Assembly: GCA_902765595.1 (NCBI GenBank)
Contig: CACXAQ010000007.1
Coordinates: 6,373-70,372, forward strand
Direction: 5' to 3'
Origin: Oscillospiraceae bacterium
Lineage (GTDB): Bacteria > Bacillota > Clostridia > Oscillospirales > Oscillospiraceae
Length of the DNA stretch: 64,000 nt
The notes beneath the pieces are model-generated. The model was not told the origin of the DNA. It saw only the letters and a program-made list of their open reading frames with translations, and ran no database searches. Below are positions 184 to 58,087 of the stretch, piece after piece. A program made the translations under genes and the position numbers. How positions within the stretch are numbered: position 1 is the first letter of the stretch; each line of letters begins with the position of its first letter.

Positions 184-747
184 ATGACAAAGCAGCAGTT
201 GCGCCGTACGCTGTCCATCTTCCTCACCTTTCTGAAATTCGGCTGCTTCACCTTCGGCGGCGGATGGAGCATCGTGGCTCAGATCCAAAAAGAATACGTG
301 GAAAAGCAGCACTGGATCACGGACGAGGAGCTGCTGGACTTTACCTCTGTCGGGCGCTCGATCCCGGGCATCATGATCGGCAACGCCAGCGTCCTCTTCG
401 GCTACCAGGCGGCGGGCGTCCCCGGCGCGCTGGCGGCCCTTTTGGGGATCGTGATCCCGCCGGTCGTGATCATGCTGGGCGTGGTATACGTCTATGATCT
501 CGTAAAGGACAATCTCTATGTTGCCCGCGCGATGATCGGCGTGCGCGCGGCGGTCGTGCCGATCATCTTCAGCGCGATGCAAAAGCTGTTTCGCTCCGGC
601 ATCCGGGATGTTTTCTGTTTTCTGGTCGCGGCCGCGGGGCTTTGCCTTTGCCTGTTCGTGAAGATGAGCAACGTCCTGATCGTGCTCCTCGGAGCCGCTG
701 CGGGGCTTGCCTGGCAGGAAGTGAGGGCTCGCCGTGGTCTATCTTGA
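184..747 (+). CDS. chromate ion transporter (CHR) family protein, half-size
   Basis: 187-aa ORF. MTKQQLRRTLSIFLTFLKFGCFTFGGGWSIVAQIQKEY... has the FGGG motif and TM pattern of CHR/ChrA half proteins. ATG lies ~10 nt after GGAGGGAG. Confidence 0.8.
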   Translation: MTKQQLRRTLSIFLTFLKFGCFTFGGGWSIVAQIQKEYVEKQHWITDEELLDFTSVGRSIPGIMIGNASVLFGYQAAGVPGALAALLGIVIPPVVIMLGVVYVYDLVKDNLYVARAMIGVRAAVVPIIFSAMQKLFRSGIRDVFCFLVAAAGLCLCLFVKMSNVLIVLLGAAAGLAWQEVRARRGLS

Positions 748-1297
748 ACTGTTCCTCTCCTTCCTGATGATCGGCTTTACCAGCTTCGGCGGCATGTCCA
801 TGATCCCACTTATCAGCGACCAGATGCTCACCCACGGCTGGATGACCGCGGCGGAGGTGGCGGACATCGTGGCGATCGCCGAGATGACGCCGGGGCCCCT
901 GGGGATCAACTGCGCGACCTTTGCCGGCGCGCGCACGGCCGGTGTGGCGGGGGCGATCGTGGCCTCCTTCGGCGTGATGGTCCCGTCCCTCACGCTCGCC
1001 GTTCTGGCGGCGATGTTCCTGAAAAAATTCAAAGACAGCCGTGTGCTGAATGAGGCGATGTACGGCATCCGCCCGGTCGCCATCGGCATGATCGTCGCCG
1101 TCATGGTGCAGCAGAGCATGAACAACTATGCCGGGACGCTCTTCGGCTGCATCTCCTGGCCCGCCGTCGTGATCGGCCTTGTCTCGCTGTTCGTCCTGCT
1201 GCGCCTGAAGTGGAGCGTGCCGAAGACGATCCTGCTTGCCGCGGCGCTGGGGCTCGTGCTCTGCGGCGTCGAGACCGCCTTTCCTCTTCCCGTGTGA
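734..1297 (+). CDS. chromate ion transporter (CHR) family protein, second half-size subunit
   Basis: 187-aa ORF with a GTG start overlapping the upstream gene by 14 nt. ...IGFTSFGGMSMIPLI...MTPGPLGINCATFAG... Paired half-size CHR genes are the usual arrangement. Confidence 0.8.
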   Translation: MVYLELFLSFLMIGFTSFGGMSMIPLISDQMLTHGWMTAAEVADIVAIAEMTPGPLGINCATFAGARTAGVAGAIVASFGVMVPSLTLAVLAAMFLKKFKDSRVLNEAMYGIRPVAIGMIVAVMVQQSMNNYAGTLFGCISWPAVVIGLVSLFVLLRLKWSVPKTILLAAALGLVLCGVETAFPLPV

Positions 1298-5704: not shown

Positions 5705-6742
5705 ATGGCTTCACTTGGTACGATCTTTCCCCGGGACGCCCGCACGCAGGCGCAAATGGACGCGCTTCTGCGCGCCGAGGGTATCCGAAGGGATAAAAAC
5801 CTGGACTACAGCTGCGGCGTCTTTGACGAGGACGGCGCGCTCATCGCCGCGGGCAGCAGCTTTAAGAATACGCTGCGCTGTCTCGCCGTCTCGTCCGAAC
5901 ACCGGGGCGAGGGGCTGATGAACCAGGTGGTAAGCCATCTGCTGGAGCGGCAGACGGAACAGGGAAACAGCCACGTTTTCCTGTATACCAAGGCGAAAAA
6001 CGACCGCATTTTCCGCGACCTGGGCTTTTATGAGATCGCCCGGGTCGAGGGCGAGCTGGTGTTCATGGAAAACCGGCGCGACGGCTTTGCCCGCTATCTG
6101 AAAGGACTGGCGGCCACGCGGCGCGAGGGGAAGTGCGCCGCCATCGTCATGAACGCCAATCCCTTCACGCGCGGCCACCGCCATCTTGTCGAGCGCGCCG
6201 CCGCGGAAAACGACGCGCTGCACCTCTTCCTGCTCAGCGAGGAGGCGGGTCCCATCCCCTTCGCCGTCCGCAAACGTCTTGTCCGGGAGGGCGTCGCGGA
6301 TCTTCCAAATGTGATCCTGCACGACTCCGGGCCGTATATCATCTCCTCGGCCACCTTCCCCAGCTATTTTCTGCGGGACGAGGACGCGGCGATCCTGGCG
6401 CATGCGAAGCTGGATCTGTGCGTGTTCGGCAAAATCGCAGCGGCCATCGGCGTCACGGCGCGCTATGCCGGCGAGGAGAAAAGCAGCCATGTGACGGCGC
6501 TGTATAACGAAACCATGGCCGCGGAGCTGCCGCGGCAGGGGCTGGAATTCCGGCAGATCCCGCGCCTCGCGCTCGACGGCGAGACCGTCAGCGCCAGCGC
6601 GGTGCGCCAGGCCATCCACGACGGCGAGCTTGAAAAGGCGGCCTTCATGCTGCCGGAGAGCAGTCTGCGATATTTTACGAGCGCGGAGGCGTCGGGCGTG
6701 ATCGCGGCCATCCGCGCCATGGACGAGGCAAAGCACTATTGA
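5705..6742 (+). CDS. citC: [citrate (pro-3S)-lyase] ligase
   Basis: 345 aa. N-terminal acetyltransferase-like part plus a cytidylyltransferase-like core (AAIVMNANPFTRGHRHLVERAA), typical of CitC. Confidence 0.9.
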   Translation: MASLGTIFPRDARTQAQMDALLRAEGIRRDKNLDYSCGVFDEDGALIAAGSSFKNTLRCLAVSSEHRGEGLMNQVVSHLLERQTEQGNSHVFLYTKAKNDRIFRDLGFYEIARVEGELVFMENRRDGFARYLKGLAATRREGKCAAIVMNANPFTRGHRHLVERAAAENDALHLFLLSEEAGPIPFAVRKRLVREGVADLPNVILHDSGPYIISSATFPSYFLRDEDAAILAHAKLDLCVFGKIAAAIGVTARYAGEEKSSHVTALYNETMAAELPRQGLEFRQIPRLALDGETVSASAVRQAIHDGELEKAAFMLPESSLRYFTSAEASGVIAAIRAMDEAKHY

Positions 6743-13531: not shown

Positions 13532-13580
13532 GAGGGACCGTTGCAAAATGAGAGTTTTGCAGCGGTCCCTCTTTCTGTTC
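13532..13580 (+). terminator. intrinsic terminator after the phosphoesterase gene
   Basis: 17-bp stem (GAGGGACCGTTGCAAAA / TTTTGCAGCGGTCCCTC, one G-U) followed by TTTCTGTT. Confidence 0.7.
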
Positions 13581-13703: not shown

Positions 13704-14058
13704 TCACGCAGCTGAAATCTCGGACAGATGCGTTCGCAATCGACCTTTGTCACGTTTCATCCAGAGCTTTTTCAGGTCAAAAGCAAGTGCCAGAAAGAAC
13801 AGCTCTGTGCGGATGTTCTTTCTTCCCCGCGTGAGAAAACGGCGGAACCCGAAGTCATTCTTAAGCAGGCCAAAGGCGCCCTCTACTTGGATCGACCGAC
13901 ATTGACGAAGATAGATACCGTAGTCTGAGGTGATGTTTTTATGCGATGCCTTCCGCAATTCCTGGAGTGTCTTGTTCACCCGCAGTTCCTTGGGCTGTTC
14001 AGCCTTCTTTGCCTGACAGCACTTCTCTCGGACCGGACAGCCGGAACAGCTTTCGCAG
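13704..14058 (-). pseudogene. IS1182-family transposase, C-terminal fragment (5'-truncated)
   Basis: Minus-strand translation gives ...YRCESCSGCPVREKCCQAKKAEQPKELRVNKTLQELRKASHKNITSDYGIYLRQCRSIQVEGAFGLLKNDFGFRRFLTRGRKN... It has no N-terminal part and abuts the integrase fragment. Confidence 0.7.
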
Positions 14059-14076: not shown

Positions 14077-14286
14077 CAAGTTACGCCTCATCAGCTCCGG
14101 CACACTTACATTACGAATTTGATTACCGCATCGGTGGATCCCAAGACAGTCCAATATCTCGCTGGGCATGAGAAGAGCAAAATGACTATGGACATCTATG
14201 CGAAAGTCAAATATAATAGGCCCGAACAGCTAATGGTTGCTGTTAATAGTGCATTTGGGCCTGTAGAATGCGAGTTGACCTCCTAA
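14077..14286 (+). pseudogene. tyrosine recombinase/integrase, C-terminal fragment
   Basis: Translation gives VTPHQLRHTYITNLITASVDPKTVQYLAGHEKSKMTMDIYAKV..., i.e. box II HxLRHT, a GH motif and the catalytic Tyr. Only ~70 codons remain and there is no start. Confidence 0.7.
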
Positions 14287-16048: not shown

Positions 16049-16744
16049 TTACCTCACGATGCTCATATAGGTGTTATACAGTTCGCCGATAACGTTCCGT
16101 ATCCGGATATAGGTGTCTCTGATCTCTCTGTTATCCGACAGGTAAAGATAATCCTCGGATCTGATCAGATCCATCAGGATCTTCTTGCTTTCGTATTCTT
16201 TTACCGGATCGGAAGCCGTTTTGGTTTCCAGCTTTTTCAGATAAGCGCGTAAGAATTCCAGGTATCGTCCATCCAGCTCTCTTTCCCTGCAGAGATCCTT
16301 GAGACGTTTATGATAAGAATAAATGTCCCGGGCGATAAACCTGCTCCAGTATTGCGGCTGTTCTTTCGCATATCCGTGGCCAAAGGGTGTGCTGACATCA
16401 TTGCCCGATACCAGTATCCTGCGCCTGTAACAGTCCCTCAGTTTCCGAAATATTTCCCCGTTCGTTCCGGTGAAAGAGGAAAAGTCTTCATGAAGCATGC
16501 TCTCCACGATGGCTGTGTTCGTCTCCGTGTCACTGATATCTGTTTCCGAGACCCAATACGGATAGGAGCCATCCATGCTGCCGAGCAAAACAAGCTTTTC
16601 GCCGTCAGGCAGGTACGCGAACTCAAGGACTCTTTTCCTGCTCAAATCCTGTCGATATCCCGGCTTGACCAGCCCATAACGGGGAGCCAGATTGAGATAG
16701 CTGAGATCCTTTTCATCTATATCCTTTTTTCTGAACAGTTTCAT
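16049..16744 (-). CDS. hypothetical protein (low-GC orphan)
   Basis: 231-aa ORF with no signal peptide or TM and no motif I recognise. G+C is visibly lower (high-40s % in sampled lines) than the flanks. Confidence 0.6.
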   Translation of the reverse strand: MKLFRKKDIDEKDLSYLNLAPRYGLVKPGYRQDLSRKRVLEFAYLPDGEKLVLLGSMDGSYPYWVSETDISDTETNTAIVESMLHEDFSSFTGTNGEIFRKLRDCYRRRILVSGNDVSTPFGHGYAKEQPQYWSRFIARDIYSYHKRLKDLCRERELDGRYLEFLRAYLKKLETKTASDPVKEYESKKILMDLIRSEDYLYLSDNREIRDTYIRIRNVIGELYNTYMSIVR

Positions 16745-16858
16745 GTGTTTGCCTCCGACAGATCCCGATTCTTCCCGATCATTGTACCATTGCTGACTGG
16801 CTCGGTCAATTCCATCGCGTTCAAACGGAAAGGAGGCACTTCCTTACGAAGTGCCTCC

Positions 16859-17023
16859 TCAAGCTGTCGACAAAGTGTCGACAGCTTGAGGAGCAAAACG
16901 GGGAACTTCCGAAAAAGTTCCCCGTTTTGCATAGATTGAACGTGAAGAGGGGATTCCCATCCCCTCTTCACAATCACCCCATGCGTGTCGGAGCCTTACT
17001 GCACGGGTTTGTCTACAGTCTGA
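16859..17023. mobile_element. MITE-like hairpin-rich element, copy A (165 bp), flanked by a 27-bp duplicated terminator hairpin
   Basis: Same sequence as 46866-47011. Imperfect TIRs TCAAGCTGTCGACAAA / TTTGTCTACAGTCTGA. Three long perfect hairpins. Flanking direct repeats GGAGGCACTTCCTTACGAAGTGCCTCC at 16832-16858 and 17024-17050. Confidence 0.7.
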
Positions 17024-17072
17024 GGAGGCACTTCCTTACGAAGTGCCTCCTGCGTCTTTTGCTGTCGAGAAA

Positions 17073-17834
17073 TCAGAAGATGGGGGACTGGAAGAACTCT
17101 CTGGTGCCCAGGTCCAGGATCAGCCGGGCGCTGCCGTACCTGGTGCCGGTCACGTCATATTTGCCCCAGAGGTCGGTGCGGGAGTAGGAGGCGTTGTGGG
17201 CGGTGATGGGCCGGCCGTAATAGTGGCCGTCCTCCCGGTTCAGACCGAAGATCGCCGTGATGGGGTTGGTGAAGAGGCGGCCGGACAGGTAGGGCACCAC
17301 GTCGGACACGTCGCCCAGACGGCGGACGACGCCCTCGCGGGAGCCGACGGAGAGCAGCGGGGAGCCGAAGGTTACGGTGTTGAGCACGTTGTAGCGGGAC
17401 TTGATGGTGGAATCCGCCGCCACCTGCTGGGCTACCATGCCGCCCAGGCTGTGGCCGGCCAGGATGATATTGGCGCCCCGGGGGACGTTCTGCTGGATCA
17501 CGCGGACCACGTTCCAGTAGTAGGCGTTGTCAAGGTCGAAGCCGGAGAACAGGTCGGTCAGGACCTCGGTGGACTGGTTGAGGACCAGCTCCGTGCCGGA
17601 CAGCGTGACAAGGTATACGGTCTTGCTGGAGAAGCCCTGCTTCAGGGTGCCCTTGGTGATGCTGATGGGGCCCTTTGCCCCGCCGTTGTAGCCGTCGCGC
17701 ACCAGCGTGTAGATCTCGGCCGCGTTGGTGTAGGTGCGGGTGGAATCGGCAAAGGCGATGAGGCCGCCCGGCAGCGCGGTGAACACCATCACCAGCGTGA
17801 GGAGCAGAGCGATAAAGCCCAGGCGTTTTTTCAT
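17073..17834 (-). CDS. secreted class-3 lipase / alpha-beta hydrolase
   Basis: 253 aa. Signal peptide MKKRLGFIALLLTLVMVFTALPGGLIAFA and the nucleophile elbow GHSLGG. Confidence 0.8.
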   Translation of the reverse strand: MKKRLGFIALLLTLVMVFTALPGGLIAFADSTRTYTNAAEIYTLVRDGYNGGAKGPISITKGTLKQGFSSKTVYLVTLSGTELVLNQSTEVLTDLFSGFDLDNAYYWNVVRVIQQNVPRGANIILAGHSLGGMVAQQVAADSTIKSRYNVLNTVTFGSPLLSVGSREGVVRRLGDVSDVVPYLSGRLFTNPITAIFGLNREDGHYYGRPITAHNASYSRTDLWGKYDVTGTRYGSARLILDLGTREFFQSPIF

Positions 17835-44463: not shown

Positions 44464-46827
44464 ATGAAGAGTATTTCGAGAAAGCTGTTCGGCCTGCTGC
44501 TGGTCCTGGTGATGATCGCCGGCATGATCCCGGCGGCTGCGGCGGAGGAGCCCTATGAGCTCTGGATCGGCGGGGTACAGGTCACCGGGGAGACGACCAG
44601 CGGCGAAGGATGGAGCTTTGATGCCGCAAGCAAGACTCTGACCCTGACCGACGCGGACATTACCACCGCCAACAGTACCGACAATCATGAGGGAGGCGCG
44701 ATCTATGCCGATGGCAAGCTGATCGTGGTGCTCTCCGGAAAGAACAAGCTGTGCAGCGGAGTGCTTGTAAAAAACGGTGAACTCGAGATCAAGGGCAGCG
44801 GCAGCCTGGACATTGATTCTCCGGACACGAATGGCATCTATGTGATGGATGACAGCATGTCCGTTTCGGGCGGCTGCACGGTGAAGGCCAAGGGGATCGG
44901 CAACGGCATTTATGTCGACGGCGACCTTACTGTCACCGGCAGCACCCTGACGGCTTCGACGGACTACGTCGGGCTTTGCGCTGCAAACATCACGATCAAA
45001 GACAGCACTGTGACCGCCACGTCCACGGCCAGGGGCAGTGACGGTATCTATACGTCAGGAAAAATCGAGATCACGGGTACCAGCAAAGTGACTTCCGAAG
45101 GAAATGAACTGGCAATTTACGGTGGCGAAGGGATCAACGTTGGCGAAGGCCTTGTTATCACGGAGCCCGAGGGCGGCCAGATCGATAATAGCACGGTCAA
45201 GCTCAACGGCGCCGTCGCGAAAAAGGTCGTGATAGAGCCGGAGCCGACCTATAGCGTCACGGTTACCGTGGAGCCCGAGGGGGCCGGTACGGCTGCCGCC
45301 GAACCGACTTCCGGCAAGAAGGGCGACCAGATCACGCTGAAGGCTGCGGCCAACGAGGGCTATACCTTCCAGGAGTGGCAGGTGATCTCCGGCGGCGTCA
45401 CCGTGGCGGAGGACAAGTTCACGCTGGGCAAGGAGGACGTGAAGCTCAAGGCCGTGTTCAAGGCTGTCACCTACACCGTACACTTTGACCCCAATGGCGG
45501 CGAGGGGACCATGGAAGACGCCACCGTGAACTACGGCGAGCAGCTGACTCTGCCGGAGTGCGGCTTCACCGCGCCGGAGGGCCAGGAATTCGACCAGTGG
45601 GATGCGGGCAAGCCGGGAGACGCCATCGATGTGACCGGGGACATGACCGTCACGGCCCAGTGGAAGGACGCGGAGCCCCCTGCTCCCGAGACCTATACCG
45701 TGAAGTTTGACCCCAACGGCGGCGAGGGCACCATGGAAGACGCCACCGTCACCGCGGGCGAACAGTACACCCTGCCGGAATGCGGCTTCACCGCGCCGGA
45801 GGGCAAGGAATTCGACCAGTGGGACGCGGGCAAGCCCGGGGACAAGATCGACGTGACCGGGGACATGACCATCAAGGCCCAATGGAAGGACGCGGAGCCG
45901 CCCGCCCCCCAGACCTTCACCGTGCGCTTTGAGTCCAACGGCGGCAGCGCCGTGGAAGAACAGACCGTGAACGAGAACGAGACGGCGCAGAAGCCCGCCA
46001 ACCCCAGTAAAACGGGCTATGCTTTCGCCGGCTGGTACAGCGACAAGGCGCTGACCAAGGCCTATGACTTTGCTTCTCCCGTTACCGCCGACCTCACCCT
46101 CTACGCCAAGTGGAACCCCATCGCCTTTACGGTGAAGTTTGAATCAAACGGCGGCAGCAGAGTTTCGGACCAGCTGGTGCAGAGCGGGAAGACCGCCGCG
46201 GAGCCCAAGGATCCCACCCGGGACGGCTTTGAGTTCGCCGGCTGGTACAGCGACAAGGCGCTGACCAAGGCCTTTGACTTCAAAACGCCCATTACCGCCA
46301 ACATCACCCTCTACGCCAAGTGGGAAGAGGGTGTGAAGTACACGGTGGACGCCATCAGCAACGCCACTGTGACCAAGGGAAAAACCGCGAGCCTGACGAT
46401 CACCGTCAAGCGTTCGCCGGACGATGAGGAGTGCTTCGAGCACTTCAGCGCCGTGGAGGTGGACGGCAAGGAGCTGGTCAAGGCTACGGATTACTCCGCC
46501 AAGGCCGGCAGTACCGTGATCACCTTCAAGAACGCCTACCTGAACAAGCTCACCTCCGGCACCCACACCGTCACCATCCTCTTTGACGACGGCAAGGTCT
46601 CTGCCAGGATCGTGGTCAAGGCCGGCACCGGCGGCGGCGGATCCCGCGCGGCCAGGACCGGCGACGAGAGCACCCCGGGCCTCTGGATCGCGCTGCTGGC
46701 CGGCTCCGCCGTGGTGCTGGCCGGGATCGTGGCTTTCCTGGTGCTTCGGATGAAGAAAGGGAAGGCCCAGCCCCGGGAGATCCCCGCCAAGGAGCAGCCC
46801 CGGAACGATTCTGAACCGAAAGCTTAA
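44464..46827 (+). CDS. large cell-surface protein with Listeria-Bacteroides (InlB B-repeat/Flg_new) repeats and a C-terminal membrane anchor
   Basis: 787 aa. A signal peptide, then repeated modules such as ...FDPNGGEGTMEDATV...LPECGFTAPEG.EFDQWD... and ...ESNGGS.V..Q.V....A..P..P.(K/R).G(Y/F).FAGWYSDKALTKA.DF. The C-terminal TM is followed by RMKKGK. Confidence 0.82.
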   Translation: MKSISRKLFGLLLVLVMIAGMIPAAAAEEPYELWIGGVQVTGETTSGEGWSFDAASKTLTLTDADITTANSTDNHEGGAIYADGKLIVVLSGKNKLCSGVLVKNGELEIKGSGSLDIDSPDTNGIYVMDDSMSVSGGCTVKAKGIGNGIYVDGDLTVTGSTLTASTDYVGLCAANITIKDSTVTATSTARGSDGIYTSGKIEITGTSKVTSEGNELAIYGGEGINVGEGLVITEPEGGQIDNSTVKLNGAVAKKVVIEPEPTYSVTVTVEPEGAGTAAAEPTSGKKGDQITLKAAANEGYTFQEWQVISGGVTVAEDKFTLGKEDVKLKAVFKAVTYTVHFDPNGGEGTMEDATVNYGEQLTLPECGFTAPEGQEFDQWDAGKPGDAIDVTGDMTVTAQWKDAEPPAPETYTVKFDPNGGEGTMEDATVTAGEQYTLPECGFTAPEGKEFDQWDAGKPGDKIDVTGDMTIKAQWKDAEPPAPQTFTVRFESNGGSAVEEQTVNENETAQKPANPSKTGYAFAGWYSDKALTKAYDFASPVTADLTLYAKWNPIAFTVKFESNGGSRVSDQLVQSGKTAAEPKDPTRDGFEFAGWYSDKALTKAFDFKTPITANITLYAKWEEGVKYTVDAISNATVTKGKTASLTITVKRSPDDEECFEHFSAVEVDGKELVKATDYSAKAGSTVITFKNAYLNKLTSGTHTVTILFDDGKVSARIVVKAGTGGGGSRAARTGDESTPGLWIALLAGSAVVLAGIVAFLVLRMKKGKAQPREIPAKEQPRNDSEPKA
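45469..45912 (+). repeat. tandem 222-bp (74-codon) duplication inside the surface-protein gene
   Basis: Units 45469-45690 and 45691-45912 align codon-for-codon with high nucleotide identity (roughly 85-90% by eye). Confidence 0.8.
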
Positions 46828-46865
46828 GTGAAAAAGGACCTCCCCGGCAAGCGCCGGGGAGGTCC

Positions 46866-47011
46866 TCAAGCTGTCGACAAAGTGTCGACAGCTTGAGGCG
46901 CAAAACGGGGAACTTCCGAAAAAGTTCCCCGTTTTGCATAGATTGAACGTGAAGAGGGGACTAACCCCATGCATGTCGGAGCCTTACTGCACGGGTTTGT
47001 CTACAGTCTGA
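46866..47011. mobile_element. MITE-like hairpin-rich element, copy B (146 bp), flanked by a 30-bp duplicated terminator hairpin
   Basis: Same ends and hairpins 1-2 as copy A, with a ~19-bp deletion removing hairpin 3. Flanking direct repeats GGACCTCCCCGGCAAGCGCCGGGGAGGTCC at 46836-46865 and 47012-47041. Confidence 0.7.
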
Positions 47012-47081
47012 GGACCTCCCCGGCAAGCGCCGGGGAGGTCCTTTGCCGTTCCGGGAAGCTTTTGGAAAGCGTATCTTCTCA

Positions 47082-56254: not shown

Positions 56255-58087
56255 ATGAGCAAGAAGTTCTTGCGGACTCTCATAGCCGTTCTGCTGATCT
56301 GCTGCATGCTTCCCATCCCCATGGCCTTCGCGGAAAGCGCGACGGTCACCGGCAGCGATGTGAACATGCGCTCCGGCCCCGGCACCAACTTCCCCGTGAT
56401 AGACTGCCTGCCCAAAGGCGCGGCCGTCACCGTGACGGACCGCTCCAACCCCAACTGGTATGCCATCACCTATCAGGGCGTGAACGGCTACATGTCCTCC
56501 CGCTATCTGCAGATCGGCGAGGAGAGCAGCCCCGCGCAGCCCACTCCCCAGCCCAATACCGGGAACCTGCCCGCCACCGGCACCAACGGCCATATCAACG
56601 CCGACGGCGTGCGCTTCCGTTCCGGCCCCAGCTCTTCCTACAGCATCCTGAACACCTACGACAAGGGCAAGGAGCTGATCATTACTGATGAGGCCAGCGG
56701 CTGGGTCGCCTGCGTCATCGACGGGCGGGCGGGCTATGTGTACGGCCTGTACGTCACCAAGGACAGCGGGACCTCTCCCGTTGTGATCGATCAGCCCCAG
56801 CCGGAGCCGACCCCCGCCGGCGACGATGAGGAGCCTGTGGTCGTGGAGGTCCCCGAGGATCCCACGCCCACCGCGGCCCCCACGCCTGCGCCTACCCCGG
56901 CCCCCACGGCGGAGCCGACCCCGACGCCCGCGGCCGGCAAGGCCGGCTATGTGAACGGCGACTATGTGCGCTTCCGCTCCGGCCCCGGCTCCAACTACAG
57001 CATCCTGGGCACCTATAACAAGGGCAAGGAGCTGACCATCACCGGCGAGAGCATGGGCTGGGTCGCCTGTATCATCGACGGCCAGGCCGGCTACATGTAC
57101 GGGCAGTACGTCAAGGTGAAGGAGACGACGCCCGCGCCTGATCCCACCCCGACCCCGGCGCCCACGCCTGACCCGACTCCGAGCCCCACGCCCGCGCCCA
57201 CGCCGACCCCGGCGCCCACCGCCGGCAAGGCCGGCTACGTGAACGGCGACTACGTGCGCTTCCGCTCCGGCCCCGGCTCCAACTACGGGATCCTGGGCAC
57301 CTATAACAAGGGCAAGGAGCTGACCATCACCGGCGAGAGCGGCGGCTGGATCGCCTGCATCATCGACGGGCAGTCCGGCTACATGTACGGACAGTACGTC
57401 AAGGAGAAGGAGACGACGCCTGCGTCCGATCCCACGCCCACGCCCACACCGACCCCCACTCCTGCACCCTCCAACGAGCAGAAGGGCTACATCACCGGCA
57501 ACAACGTGCGTTTCCGCTCCGGCCCGTCCGCGCAGTCTGAGATCCTGGGCGAGTTCTTCTACGGCAACGTGGTGACCATCACCGGTGAAGTCAACGGCTG
57601 GACGGCCGTGATCTACAACGGCAGAAGCGGCTATGTGTACAGCCAGTACGTGGCCAAGGGCGACAACGGGACCAAGCCCAGCGATCCTCCCTCCCCCCAG
57701 CCCGGCGGCAATGTCACCGGCCAGCAGATCGTGGACTACGCGATGAAGTTCCTGGGCTACAACTACGTCTGGGGCGGCGCTTCGCCCGACACCGGCTTTG
57801 ACTGCTCCGGCCTGGTGTACTATGTCTATGGGCAGTTCGGCTATACCATGAACCGTGTGGCCGCGGACCAGGCCCGCAACGGCGTCCACGTGGACGCGGC
57901 GAATATGCAGCCCGGCGACGTGCTCTGCTTCTACTCCAGTGAAAGCTACATCGGCCATGTGGGTATCTACATCGGCAACAACCGGTTCATCCACGCGGCC
58001 AACTCCCGCTCCGGCGTCATCATCACGGAGCTGTCCGGCTACTACTCCGCCCGCGGCATCGAGGTCCGCCGCATCGTGGGGAACTGA
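56255..58087 (+). CDS. secreted peptidoglycan endopeptidase: 5 x SH3b domains + C-terminal NlpC/P60
   Basis: 610 aa. A signal peptide, five SH3_3-like modules (...V(R/N)(F/M)RSGP...) separated by Pro/Thr linkers, and a C-terminal DCSGLV...GHVGIY...H catalytic set. Confidence 0.9.
   Translation: MSKKFLRTLIAVLLICCMLPIPMAFAESATVTGSDVNMRSGPGTNFPVIDCLPKGAAVTVTDRSNPNWYAITYQGVNGYMSSRYLQIGEESSPAQPTPQPNTGNLPATGTNGHINADGVRFRSGPSSSYSILNTYDKGKELIITDEASGWVACVIDGRAGYVYGLYVTKDSGTSPVVIDQPQPEPTPAGDDEEPVVVEVPEDPTPTAAPTPAPTPAPTAEPTPTPAAGKAGYVNGDYVRFRSGPGSNYSILGTYNKGKELTITGESMGWVACIIDGQAGYMYGQYVKVKETTPAPDPTPTPAPTPDPTPSPTPAPTPTPAPTAGKAGYVNGDYVRFRSGPGSNYGILGTYNKGKELTITGESGGWIACIIDGQSGYMYGQYVKEKETTPASDPTPTPTPTPTPAPSNEQKGYITGNNVRFRSGPSAQSEILGEFFYGNVVTITGEVNGWTAVIYNGRSGYVYSQYVAKGDNGTKPSDPPSPQPGGNVTGQQIVDYAMKFLGYNYVWGGASPDTGFDCSGLVYYVYGQFGYTMNRVAADQARNGVHVDAANMQPGDVLCFYSSESYIGHVGIYIGNNRFIHAANSRSGVIITELSGYYSARGIEVRRIVGN
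56936..57511 (+). repeat. tandem 288-bp (96-codon) duplication of an SH3b module plus PT-linker
   Basis: Units 56936-57223 and 57224-57511 are nearly identical at the nucleotide level (>90% by eye). Confidence 0.85.

Follow-up and report, generated by a model that had tools for sequence, protein, structure and literature searches.

The 64,000-nucleotide stretch of DNA analysed here (the window; positions 6,373 to 70,372 of contig CACXAQ010000007.1, assembly GCA_902765595.1, from an Oscillospiraceae bacterium) carries two copies of one hairpin-rich, non-coding sequence, at ~16.86 kb (site A) and ~46.87 kb (site B). Both lie close to the 3' end of a gene, that of a putative hydrolase at site A and that of a surface protein at site B, and each is enclosed between perfect direct repeats of a GC-rich stem-loop that differs from one locus to the other (GGAGGCACTTCCTTACGAAGTGCCTCC at A, GGACCTCCCCGGCAAGCGCCGGGGAGGTCC at B). 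Here we show that the sequence is a MITE (miniature transposable element with inverted repeats), that most of its insertions among rumen bacteria are flanked by two copies of an entire hairpin with the character of an intrinsic transcription terminator, and that its right end is identical to the ends of insertion sequences (ISs) of the IS1182 family.

The element and its boundaries

Read and aligned against each other, copies A and B differ by three substitutions and by one 19-bp internal deletion in B, and are otherwise identical, as the initial annotation of this DNA had proposed in placing the same element at both sites. That annotation had recognised two elements with flanking repeats, but its boundaries were off by 1 nt on each side. 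The corrected element is 163 bp long and runs 5'-CAAGCTG...CAGTCTG-3'. Among 55 other copies with clean junctions, the base formerly counted as its last A agrees with the one just before the left repeat in all 55, and its former first T agrees with the one just after the right repeat in 53; the matches include all eight cases in which the base is other than the usual A or T. Because both bases covary with the flank across the 55 copies, they are assigned to the target duplication, the outermost bases of which are A...T in 50/55 copies, so that the usual target has the form A-hairpin-T.

The terminal inverted repeats (TIRs), CAAGCTGTCGACAAA on the left and CAGACTGTAGACAAA on the right, are identical at 12 of 15 positions, and the motif is kept in 80 copies. 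Within the window the 16-nt end motif (with at most 3 mismatches) occurs eight times against 0.41 expected, a count reached in none of 100 shuffles, and both regions fold far more stably than shuffled sequence (z = -14.7 and -12.8). The element has TIRs, encodes no protein, occurs in many scattered copies and is polymorphic for insertion, with an empty site in one strain; it is a real MITE, as its first description as MITE-like had anticipated.

Whole-hairpin duplication at terminator-like targets

A scan of the genome collection with the left-end hairpin gave at least 119 matches at no fewer than 118 loci beyond the window (designated here by L numbers), all in metagenome-assembled genomes (MAGs) of rumen Oscillospiraceae, Ruminococcaceae or Clostridia; the family-wide counts that follow are counts among the matches listed. 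Left and right ends could be paired 82 times, and after removal of two spurious joins of adjacent elements (L031-, L069-) 80 complete copies remained, mostly of 161-163 bp with the corrected boundaries, together with many shorter deletion derivatives. Flanking sequence sufficed for 79 copies. In 61 of these a direct repeat of 14-41 bp (median 27), equivalent to 16-43 bp when the two corrected bases are counted, adjoins the element at either end, and each of the 61 repeats is a different perfect or near-perfect hairpin. About five further copies have partial duplications. This tabulation, which the initial annotation had put forward as a check, extends to many loci what had been described at sites A and B, namely perfect duplications of a locus-specific hairpin (with exact lengths of 29 and 32 bp), and it agrees with the view that the duplicated unit is a whole terminator stem-loop of variable length rather than a short target-site duplication (TSD) of fixed length.

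When the empty sites were reconstructed, the duplication boundaries proved exactly symmetric about the dyad of the hairpin in 46 of 61 cases. The palindrome often extends 1-12 bp past the duplication, mostly as A:T pairs; hence the earlier proposal of cuts at the two bases of the stem stands as regards their symmetry, but not as regards their position, which is often 1-12 bp inside the maximal palindrome. Gene orientation around the targets was called by GC content at third codon positions (GC3), which reproduced the known genes of the window; calls based on the longest open frame were implausible at the high GC content of this DNA. At 50 of 60 sites, and at 38 of the 41 where both flanks could be judged, at least one gene points its 3' end at the target, with a median of 23 nt between stop codon and duplication, and the orientation of the element shows no clear bias (15 vs 11). 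The targets thus behave like intrinsic terminators. Hairpins are also re-used as targets: tandem elements share one hairpin at L031, and L073 and L097 have nested insertions within hairpin 2 of another copy of the element.

At L011 the two copies of the duplicated hairpin differ solely by inversion of the loop (ATC vs GAT), and in several other pairs of duplications (L013, L036) the differences are compensatory changes in both arms. In some copies, such as that at L043 (6 nt), the few bases behind hairpin 1 match the beginning of the duplication, though not in a consistent manner from copy to copy; this may result from quasi-palindrome correction.

An empty site and decay of copies in sister strains

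Relatives of site A were located through the hydrolase protein, which is encoded on many public contigs. Three of them (L121, L123, L124) have the same intergenic spacer as the window, and their site is filled. In a fourth, L122, the spacer is 192 bp shorter, and alignment reveals a single GGAGGCACTTCGTAAGGAAGTGCCTCC hairpin and no element; filled and empty sites differ by exactly the element plus one hairpin, that is, by 192 bp. Because this sister strain holds an empty site with one hairpin, rather than the two in tandem that a pre-existing duplication would have left, the duplication at site A arose on insertion.

All retrieved relatives of site B are filled. In L126 the MITE is full-length with hairpin 3 intact, and the 19-bp deletion of copy B is for that reason specific to the strain of the window. 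In L128, at the same site, 28 bp are deleted, a stretch that takes in an arm each of the duplicated hairpin and of hairpin 1. Across the MAGs, copies carry deletions of 20-55 bp, and the MITE decays by palindrome-associated deletions.

Relation to IS1182-family insertion sequences

Membership of the transposase family was tested on a related IS. Scanning viral contigs with the right-end 15-mer CAGACTGTAGACAAA gave at least 120 loci, and the counts of ISs given here are again those among the matches listed. Many of the matches are the two inverted ends of ~1.6-kb elements on phage and metagenome contigs of gut Firmicutes. The 496-aa open reading frame of one such element (L193, 654-2144) scores 453 bits (cut-off 270; E = 1e-135) with the NCBIfam model NF033551 'IS1182 family transposase' and also matches Pfam DUF772, DDE_Tnp_1 and DDE_Tnp_1_6. 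Homologues of this transposase are very abundant in public assemblies, where they form clusters of hundreds to thousands.

The right end of the MITE is identical to the ends of these ISs at 15/15 positions, a variant of its left end, CTGTCGACAAAG, also occurs in their terminal repeats (L146, L214), and MITE and ISs have a common end architecture consisting of the terminal repeat, a GC-rich hairpin and a T-run. Of 41 distinct IS ends with a subterminal hairpin, 36 abut a flanking hairpin, and eight full-length ISs are flanked by perfect or near-perfect hairpin duplications of 16-27 bp. One of them, at L251, has a 27-bp duplication, AGGGAATGTTGTTTTGCAACATTCCCT, that follows a Cpn60 gene; its contig is 275 kb long. 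Short derivatives of these ISs occur on phage contigs from low-GC Firmicutes: mini elements of 45-48 bp that amount to two CAGACTGTAGACAAA ends back to back (L248:4099-4145, of 47 bp; also L164, L188, L245 and L246), and a low-GC MITE of ~160 bp with a 26-bp hairpin duplication (L134:~640-800, reverse strand). The family reaches well past rumen Oscillospiraceae.

The shared terminal sequences favour a placement of the MITE in this IS1182 lineage, as a non-autonomous derivative. The initial annotation had pointed to the IS1182 family for its unusually long and variable direct repeats and had noted a transposase remnant of that family in the window, and at family level its lead is borne out by ISs with the same 15-bp TIR and with hairpin duplications; it had also observed that the visible end of the remnant does not resemble the TIRs of the MITE, in line with the different ends (GGGaCCGtTGCAAAAT) of L119 and L120, the intact members of the remnant's lineage. 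The remnant was considered and rejected as a partner, given that L119 and L120 end in the GGGaCCGtTGCAAAAT hairpin and have no significant similarity to the MITE. Two other loci, L089 and L017, proved false leads to a full-length element and are ordinary genes.

Proposed mechanism

We propose, with a probability of about 0.8, that the feature is an IS1182-family MITE moved in trans into terminator hairpins, with the entire stem-loop duplicated via symmetric strand transfers. An IS1182-type DDE transposase acting in trans would bind the ~15-bp TIRs (CAAGCTGTCGACAAA and CAGACTGTAGACAAA) and link both 3' ends of the element to an intrinsic terminator, a GC-rich palindrome with A- and T-runs on its flanks. 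The two strand transfers would take place at mirror-image positions about the dyad, one on each strand and 16-43 bp apart, and repair of the two resulting single-stranded gaps would copy the entire stem-loop to either side of the element. Since DDE transposases connect the 3' ends with opposite strands, the attack would fall at the 5' side of each arm, given a stagger that is symmetric and spans 16-43 bp. The target would be captured in a form that brings the attacked phosphates near each other, either an extruded cruciform or a hairpin on single-stranded DNA; one of these forms is the most likely because a fixed protein assembly could not span such variable distances on B-form DNA. Cuts a few A:T pairs inside the palindrome fit a breathing or branch-migrating junction and leave room for a preference of the type R|A...T|Y. 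Insertion would be nearly neutral, because both neighbouring genes keep a complete hairpin.

A bolder version, to which we would give somewhat less than an even chance, is that the enzyme is a structure-specific DDE transposase that acts on a cruciform or on a hairpin at the replication fork, with the spacing of 16-43 bp set by the stem, and that the MITE, through its own terminator-like hairpins, is self-insulating and creates its own targets. Were it so, each insertion would leave both neighbouring genes correctly terminated.

Several points weigh against the proposal. Eighteen of the 79 MITE copies have no matching flanks; apart from the partial duplications, most of these have a different hairpin on each side or adjoin other elements. 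Matching flanks are likewise missing from 10 of 18 evaluable full-length ISs. At least some of the copies without matching flanks are assembly chimeras, as seen from left or right flanks that pairs among L262, L265 and L266 have in common, and alternative modes of insertion, for example a hairpin deletion like that of IS1272, are also possible. The frequent position of the cuts 1-12 bp inside the maximal palindrome means that the base of the stem is no strict rule. As for the enzyme, no full-length IS with the ends of the MITE was found in the window, among the at least 118 MAG loci listed or in the species of the window, and end pairs and hairpin direct repeats up to 4 kb apart at the MAG loci yielded MITEs and one rearranged copy of 519 bp (L012). 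A BLASTN search with the MITE through collections of plasmids and phages returned nothing relevant, and the interior of the MITE has no detectable homology to any IS end examined. The IS1182 link rests on TIRs shared with elements of other gut Firmicutes, in a search that was itself seeded by the 15-mer of the MITE, and the most likely form of the target, cruciform or hairpin, is deduced from the long, variable and symmetric stagger, as is recognition itself.

Alternative explanations

The strongest competitor, which we nevertheless regard as improbable, is that the element is a conserved structured RNA or regulatory module, such as a small RNA (sRNA) of 3' untranslated regions, a portable terminator or an insulator, whose mobility is incidental. 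The 13 of 31 predicted pairs at which hairpins 2 and 3 keep their pairing by compensatory changes speak for it, as do the bidirectional-terminator form of hairpin 2 and the location of the element downstream of genes. However, palindromes can remain perfect without selection through intrastrand templated repair, a location downstream of genes follows from the choice of target, no Rfam family reaches threshold on the element, and the copies decay by deletions and are present or absent among strains. That the doubled hairpins are instead pre-existing tandem terminators, or later local duplications, we consider barely credible: tandem terminators do occur in bacteria, and some copies have non-identical or partial hairpins on their flanks, but the orthologous empty site in L122 contains exactly one hairpin, and at 61 independent loci a different hairpin is duplicated precisely at the boundaries of the element, as it is around full-length ISs.

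If the element is a transposon duplicating hairpins, the enzyme could still be other than the IS1182-family transposase that we favour. An IS30-family (IS1630-like) transposase would produce the same outcome, in that inverted repeats of 16-26 bp that resemble terminators are duplicated by IS1630 and its relatives (PMC2853133, PMC3317919, PMC7648426); IS30 is the only family with a formal description of whole inverted-repeat duplication. We think this most unlikely, however, since the right TIR of the MITE agrees in all 15 nt with the ends of bona fide IS1182-family elements that themselves duplicate hairpins, and no IS30-type gene or end adjoins any MITE copy in a survey that included no search aimed at IS30 elements. 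An even more distant prospect is a single-strand element of the IS200/IS605 type, moved by an HUH transposase that recognises hairpins at the replication fork: the element is hairpin-rich and adjoins hairpins, and hairpins could plausibly form on the lagging-strand template, but the MITE has TIRs and long duplications, and its ends match those of ISs with DDE transposases. Elements of the IS200/IS605 type have subterminal hairpins, no terminal inverted repeats and no target duplication.

Comparison with known systems

IS1630 of Mycoplasma fermentans (IS30 family; Calcutt, Lavrrar & Wise 1999, J Bacteriol 181:7597) duplicates whole inverted repeats of 19-26 bp (PMC2853133; PMC3317919; also quoted in PMC7648426). 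Whole inverted-repeat duplication is common to IS1630, to relatives such as ISMhom-1 and to the MITE. IS1630 is an autonomous 1.4-kb element of a low-GC mollicute with an IS30-type transposase and 27-bp TIRs; the MITE, unlike it, is 163 bp long and non-coding, has IS1182-type ends, duplicates 16-43 bp and is documented in more than 100 copies. The repeats duplicated by IS1630 reportedly derive from rho-independent terminators.

Within the IS1182 family, IS1272/TnSha1 of staphylococci targets hairpins, mostly terminators, without a primary-sequence consensus (PMC4923244, PMC5678879). In the model put forward for it, the transposon ends attack the 5' feet of a cruciform, and one branch, pathway b, predicts that the entire stem-loop is duplicated (PMC5678879 Fig. 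13). Family and hairpin targets are thus common to IS1272 and the MITE, but IS1272 deletes or replaces the hairpin without duplication (PMC4923244, PMC5678879), whereas the MITE and its IS relatives duplicate it. Siguier et al. 2015, as quoted in later papers, state that some IS1182 members target palindromes, and one of the quoting papers, PMC5678879, describes detailed data as absent (PMC4923244, PMC5678879). The elements studied here resemble the family both in their palindromic targets and in their long, variable repeats (16-27 bp for the ISs, 14-41 bp as aligned for the MITE). ISfinder lists the IS1182 family with direct repeats of 0-60 bp.

SPRITE, BOX and RUP (pneumococcus) and the Correia elements (Neisseria) are, like the MITE, short, non-coding, hairpin-rich and intergenic. 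To our knowledge they make short fixed duplications or none, and none has been reported to duplicate a whole host terminator. SPRITE is terminator-like (PMC10383233). In the searchable literature, the coverage of which is incomplete, we found no MITE with this behaviour, no MITE derivative of the IS1182 family and no description of a dyad symmetry rule. The behaviour as such is not new, in that whole-hairpin duplication, hairpin targeting and a cruciform model have all been published; the MITE is an abundant new example of a known but poorly characterised behaviour, not a new principle.

Nearly all DDE transposons generate a short duplication whose fixed length is dictated by the transpososome's geometry on B-form DNA. 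A duplication that consists of a whole hairpin, whatever its length, implies that DNA structure defines the target. The prior basis for such behaviour consisted of nine IS1630 copies, a few mycoplasma relatives and one remark on the IS1182 family. The MITE and its IS relatives enlarge this basis by over 60 independent insertions; they also bring an empty site, a rule of symmetry and a candidate family for the enzyme, and structure-specific target capture therefore becomes directly testable. What makes the MITE valuable is how large and clean the data set is, along with this candidate family. For annotation, doubled terminators around a 160-bp cluster of hairpins in gut and rumen Clostridia should be read as insertion scars and not as regulatory RNAs; these elements also break MAG assemblies.

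Internal structure of the element

Three hairpins make up much of the MITE (Table 1). The loop of hairpin 1 is inverted (ACTTT for AAAGT) in 4 of the 80 complete copies, the loci named being L009, L012, L033, L065 and L084; together with compensatory pairs of duplications, such inversions point to intrastrand template switching or palindrome correction. In L046 (121-150) the outer arm of hairpin 1 is a sequence of the right-end type, TCAGACTGTAGAC, which makes the TIRs perfect and hairpin 1 imperfect, possibly the ancestral arrangement.

When 42 full-length copies are aligned, pairing in hairpins 2 and 3 is seen to be preserved across subfamilies, with compensatory double changes at 13 of the 31 predicted pairs; at column pair 43-67 of hairpin 2, for example, UA occurs 23 times, CG 10, GC 3 and AU once. 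The kept pairing may reflect either a functional structural constraint or neutral self-correction of palindromes. A search of the element with Rfam 15 gave no family at gathering threshold, the best score being 28 bits against a threshold of 83 bits.

Other elements joined to the MITE

Hairpin 3 is a recurrent point of insertion or truncation. An element that begins GTATTATTAAGTCGTAGTTAATATAGCTCG..., of which ~160 nt are readable, is joined at the identical position of hairpin 3, after CCCCCCTT, in four MITE copies, and appears to be site-specific, with the MITE as its target; this element, too, has no match in Rfam. The sequence GTATTATTAAGTCG..., joined to hairpin 3 in L027, L057 and L109, was considered as the interior of an autonomous partner and rejected. 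It is a separate element inserted into the MITE, because L130 has a normal MITE at the locus of L129.

A second MITE, 209 bp long with an unrelated interior (L088:2878-3156), bears the related ends CAGACTGTCAAGAAAA and CAGCTTGTCAAAAAAG, and its hairpin duplication measures 35 bp; ends or footprints of an element like it (CTGTCAAGAGAAA) lie within hairpin 3 of the main MITE in L009 and L074. In L030 and L117 the MITE is truncated in hairpin 3, ~100 nt inside, by one common sequence. On its reverse strand this sequence appears to encode the C-terminal end of a protein resembling large serine recombinases (...IEKIIVHEA...), which suggests that a larger integrative element was inserted at this point.

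Features of the window and neighbouring genes

Table 1. Positions of the MITE, its parts and its surroundings. Coordinates are those of the window unless a locus is named.
Feature	Position	Strand	Remarks
MITE copy A	16860-17022	+	163 bp, 5'-CAAGCTGTCGACAAAG...GTTTGTCTACAGTCTG-3', non-coding; absent from sister strain L122
MITE copy B	46867-47010	+	144 bp; same element minus 19 bp within hairpin 3
Hairpin 1	16860-16888	+	left terminal repeat CAAGCTGTCGAC followed directly by its own inverted copy; loop AAAGT
Hairpin 2	16893-16930	+	GCAAAACGGGGAACTT-ccgaaa-AAGTTCCCCGTTTTGC; A-run before, T-run after, bidirectional-terminator-like
Hairpin 3	16942-16971	+	GTGAAGAGGGGA-ttccca-TCCCCTCTTCAC; GC-rich; half deleted in copy B
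Right terminal inverted repeat, TTTGTCTACAGTCTG	17008-17022	+	reverse complement CAGACTGTAGACAAA; identical to TIRs of ~1.6-kb IS1182-family ISs
Left TSD copy, site A (AGGAGGCACTTCCTTACGAAGTGCCTCCT)	16831-16859	.	exact 29-bp repeat; on the minus strand followed by TTTCCGTTTG, T-tract of the original terminator
Right TSD copy, site A	17023-17051	.	29 bp; 21 nt beyond stop codon of hydrolase gene
Left TSD copy, site B (AGGACCTCCCCGGCAAGCGCCGGGGAGGTCCT)	46835-46866	.	exact 32-bp repeat; 7 nt past stop of surface-protein gene
Right TSD copy, site B	47011-47042	.	32 bp, then TTGCCGTT
Gene at site A	17073-17834	minus	alpha/beta-hydrolase/Lipase_3-like; stop codon faces element
Gene at site A	16049-16744	minus	231 aa; start faces element
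Gene at site B	44464-46827	plus	Listeria-Bacteroides-repeat surface protein; stop 7 nt from repeat
IS1182-family remnant	13704-14058	minus	DDE_Tnp_1_6; C-terminal ~130 aa
Terminal hairpin of remnant, GAGGGACCGCTGCAAAACTCTCATTTTGCAACGGTCCCTC	13533-13572	reverse	two inverted copies of its end
Junctions of element GTATTATTAAGTCGTAGTTAATATAGCTCG...	L027:~7290, L057:~1370, L109:~1490, L129:~130	reverse (L129)	uninterrupted MITE at L130:4840

The hairpin at site A had been described as the terminator of a lipase gene; it does follow the stop codon closely, but the gene (17073-17834) matches the Lipase_3 and alpha/beta hydrolase models weakly. The surface-protein gene at site B contains tandem coding units of 210-222 nt (Flg_new repeats) at 45469-46323, and further tandem coding repeats, with units of ~250-360 nt and Pro/Thr-rich linkers, occupy 56345-57540.

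At L056 (~2020) and L058 (~5670) an IS end of the type of the remnant abuts a MITE end where the duplicated hairpin would be expected, which suggests that the lineage of the remnant (L119 type) inserts by hairpin replacement, in the manner of IS1272. Adjoining the remnant in the window, a fragment at 14120-14260 (plus strand) reads like the C-terminus of a tyrosine recombinase/integrase (...ILGHEKSKMTMDIYAKVKYNRPEQL), and the region as a whole looks like a junkyard of decayed mobile elements.

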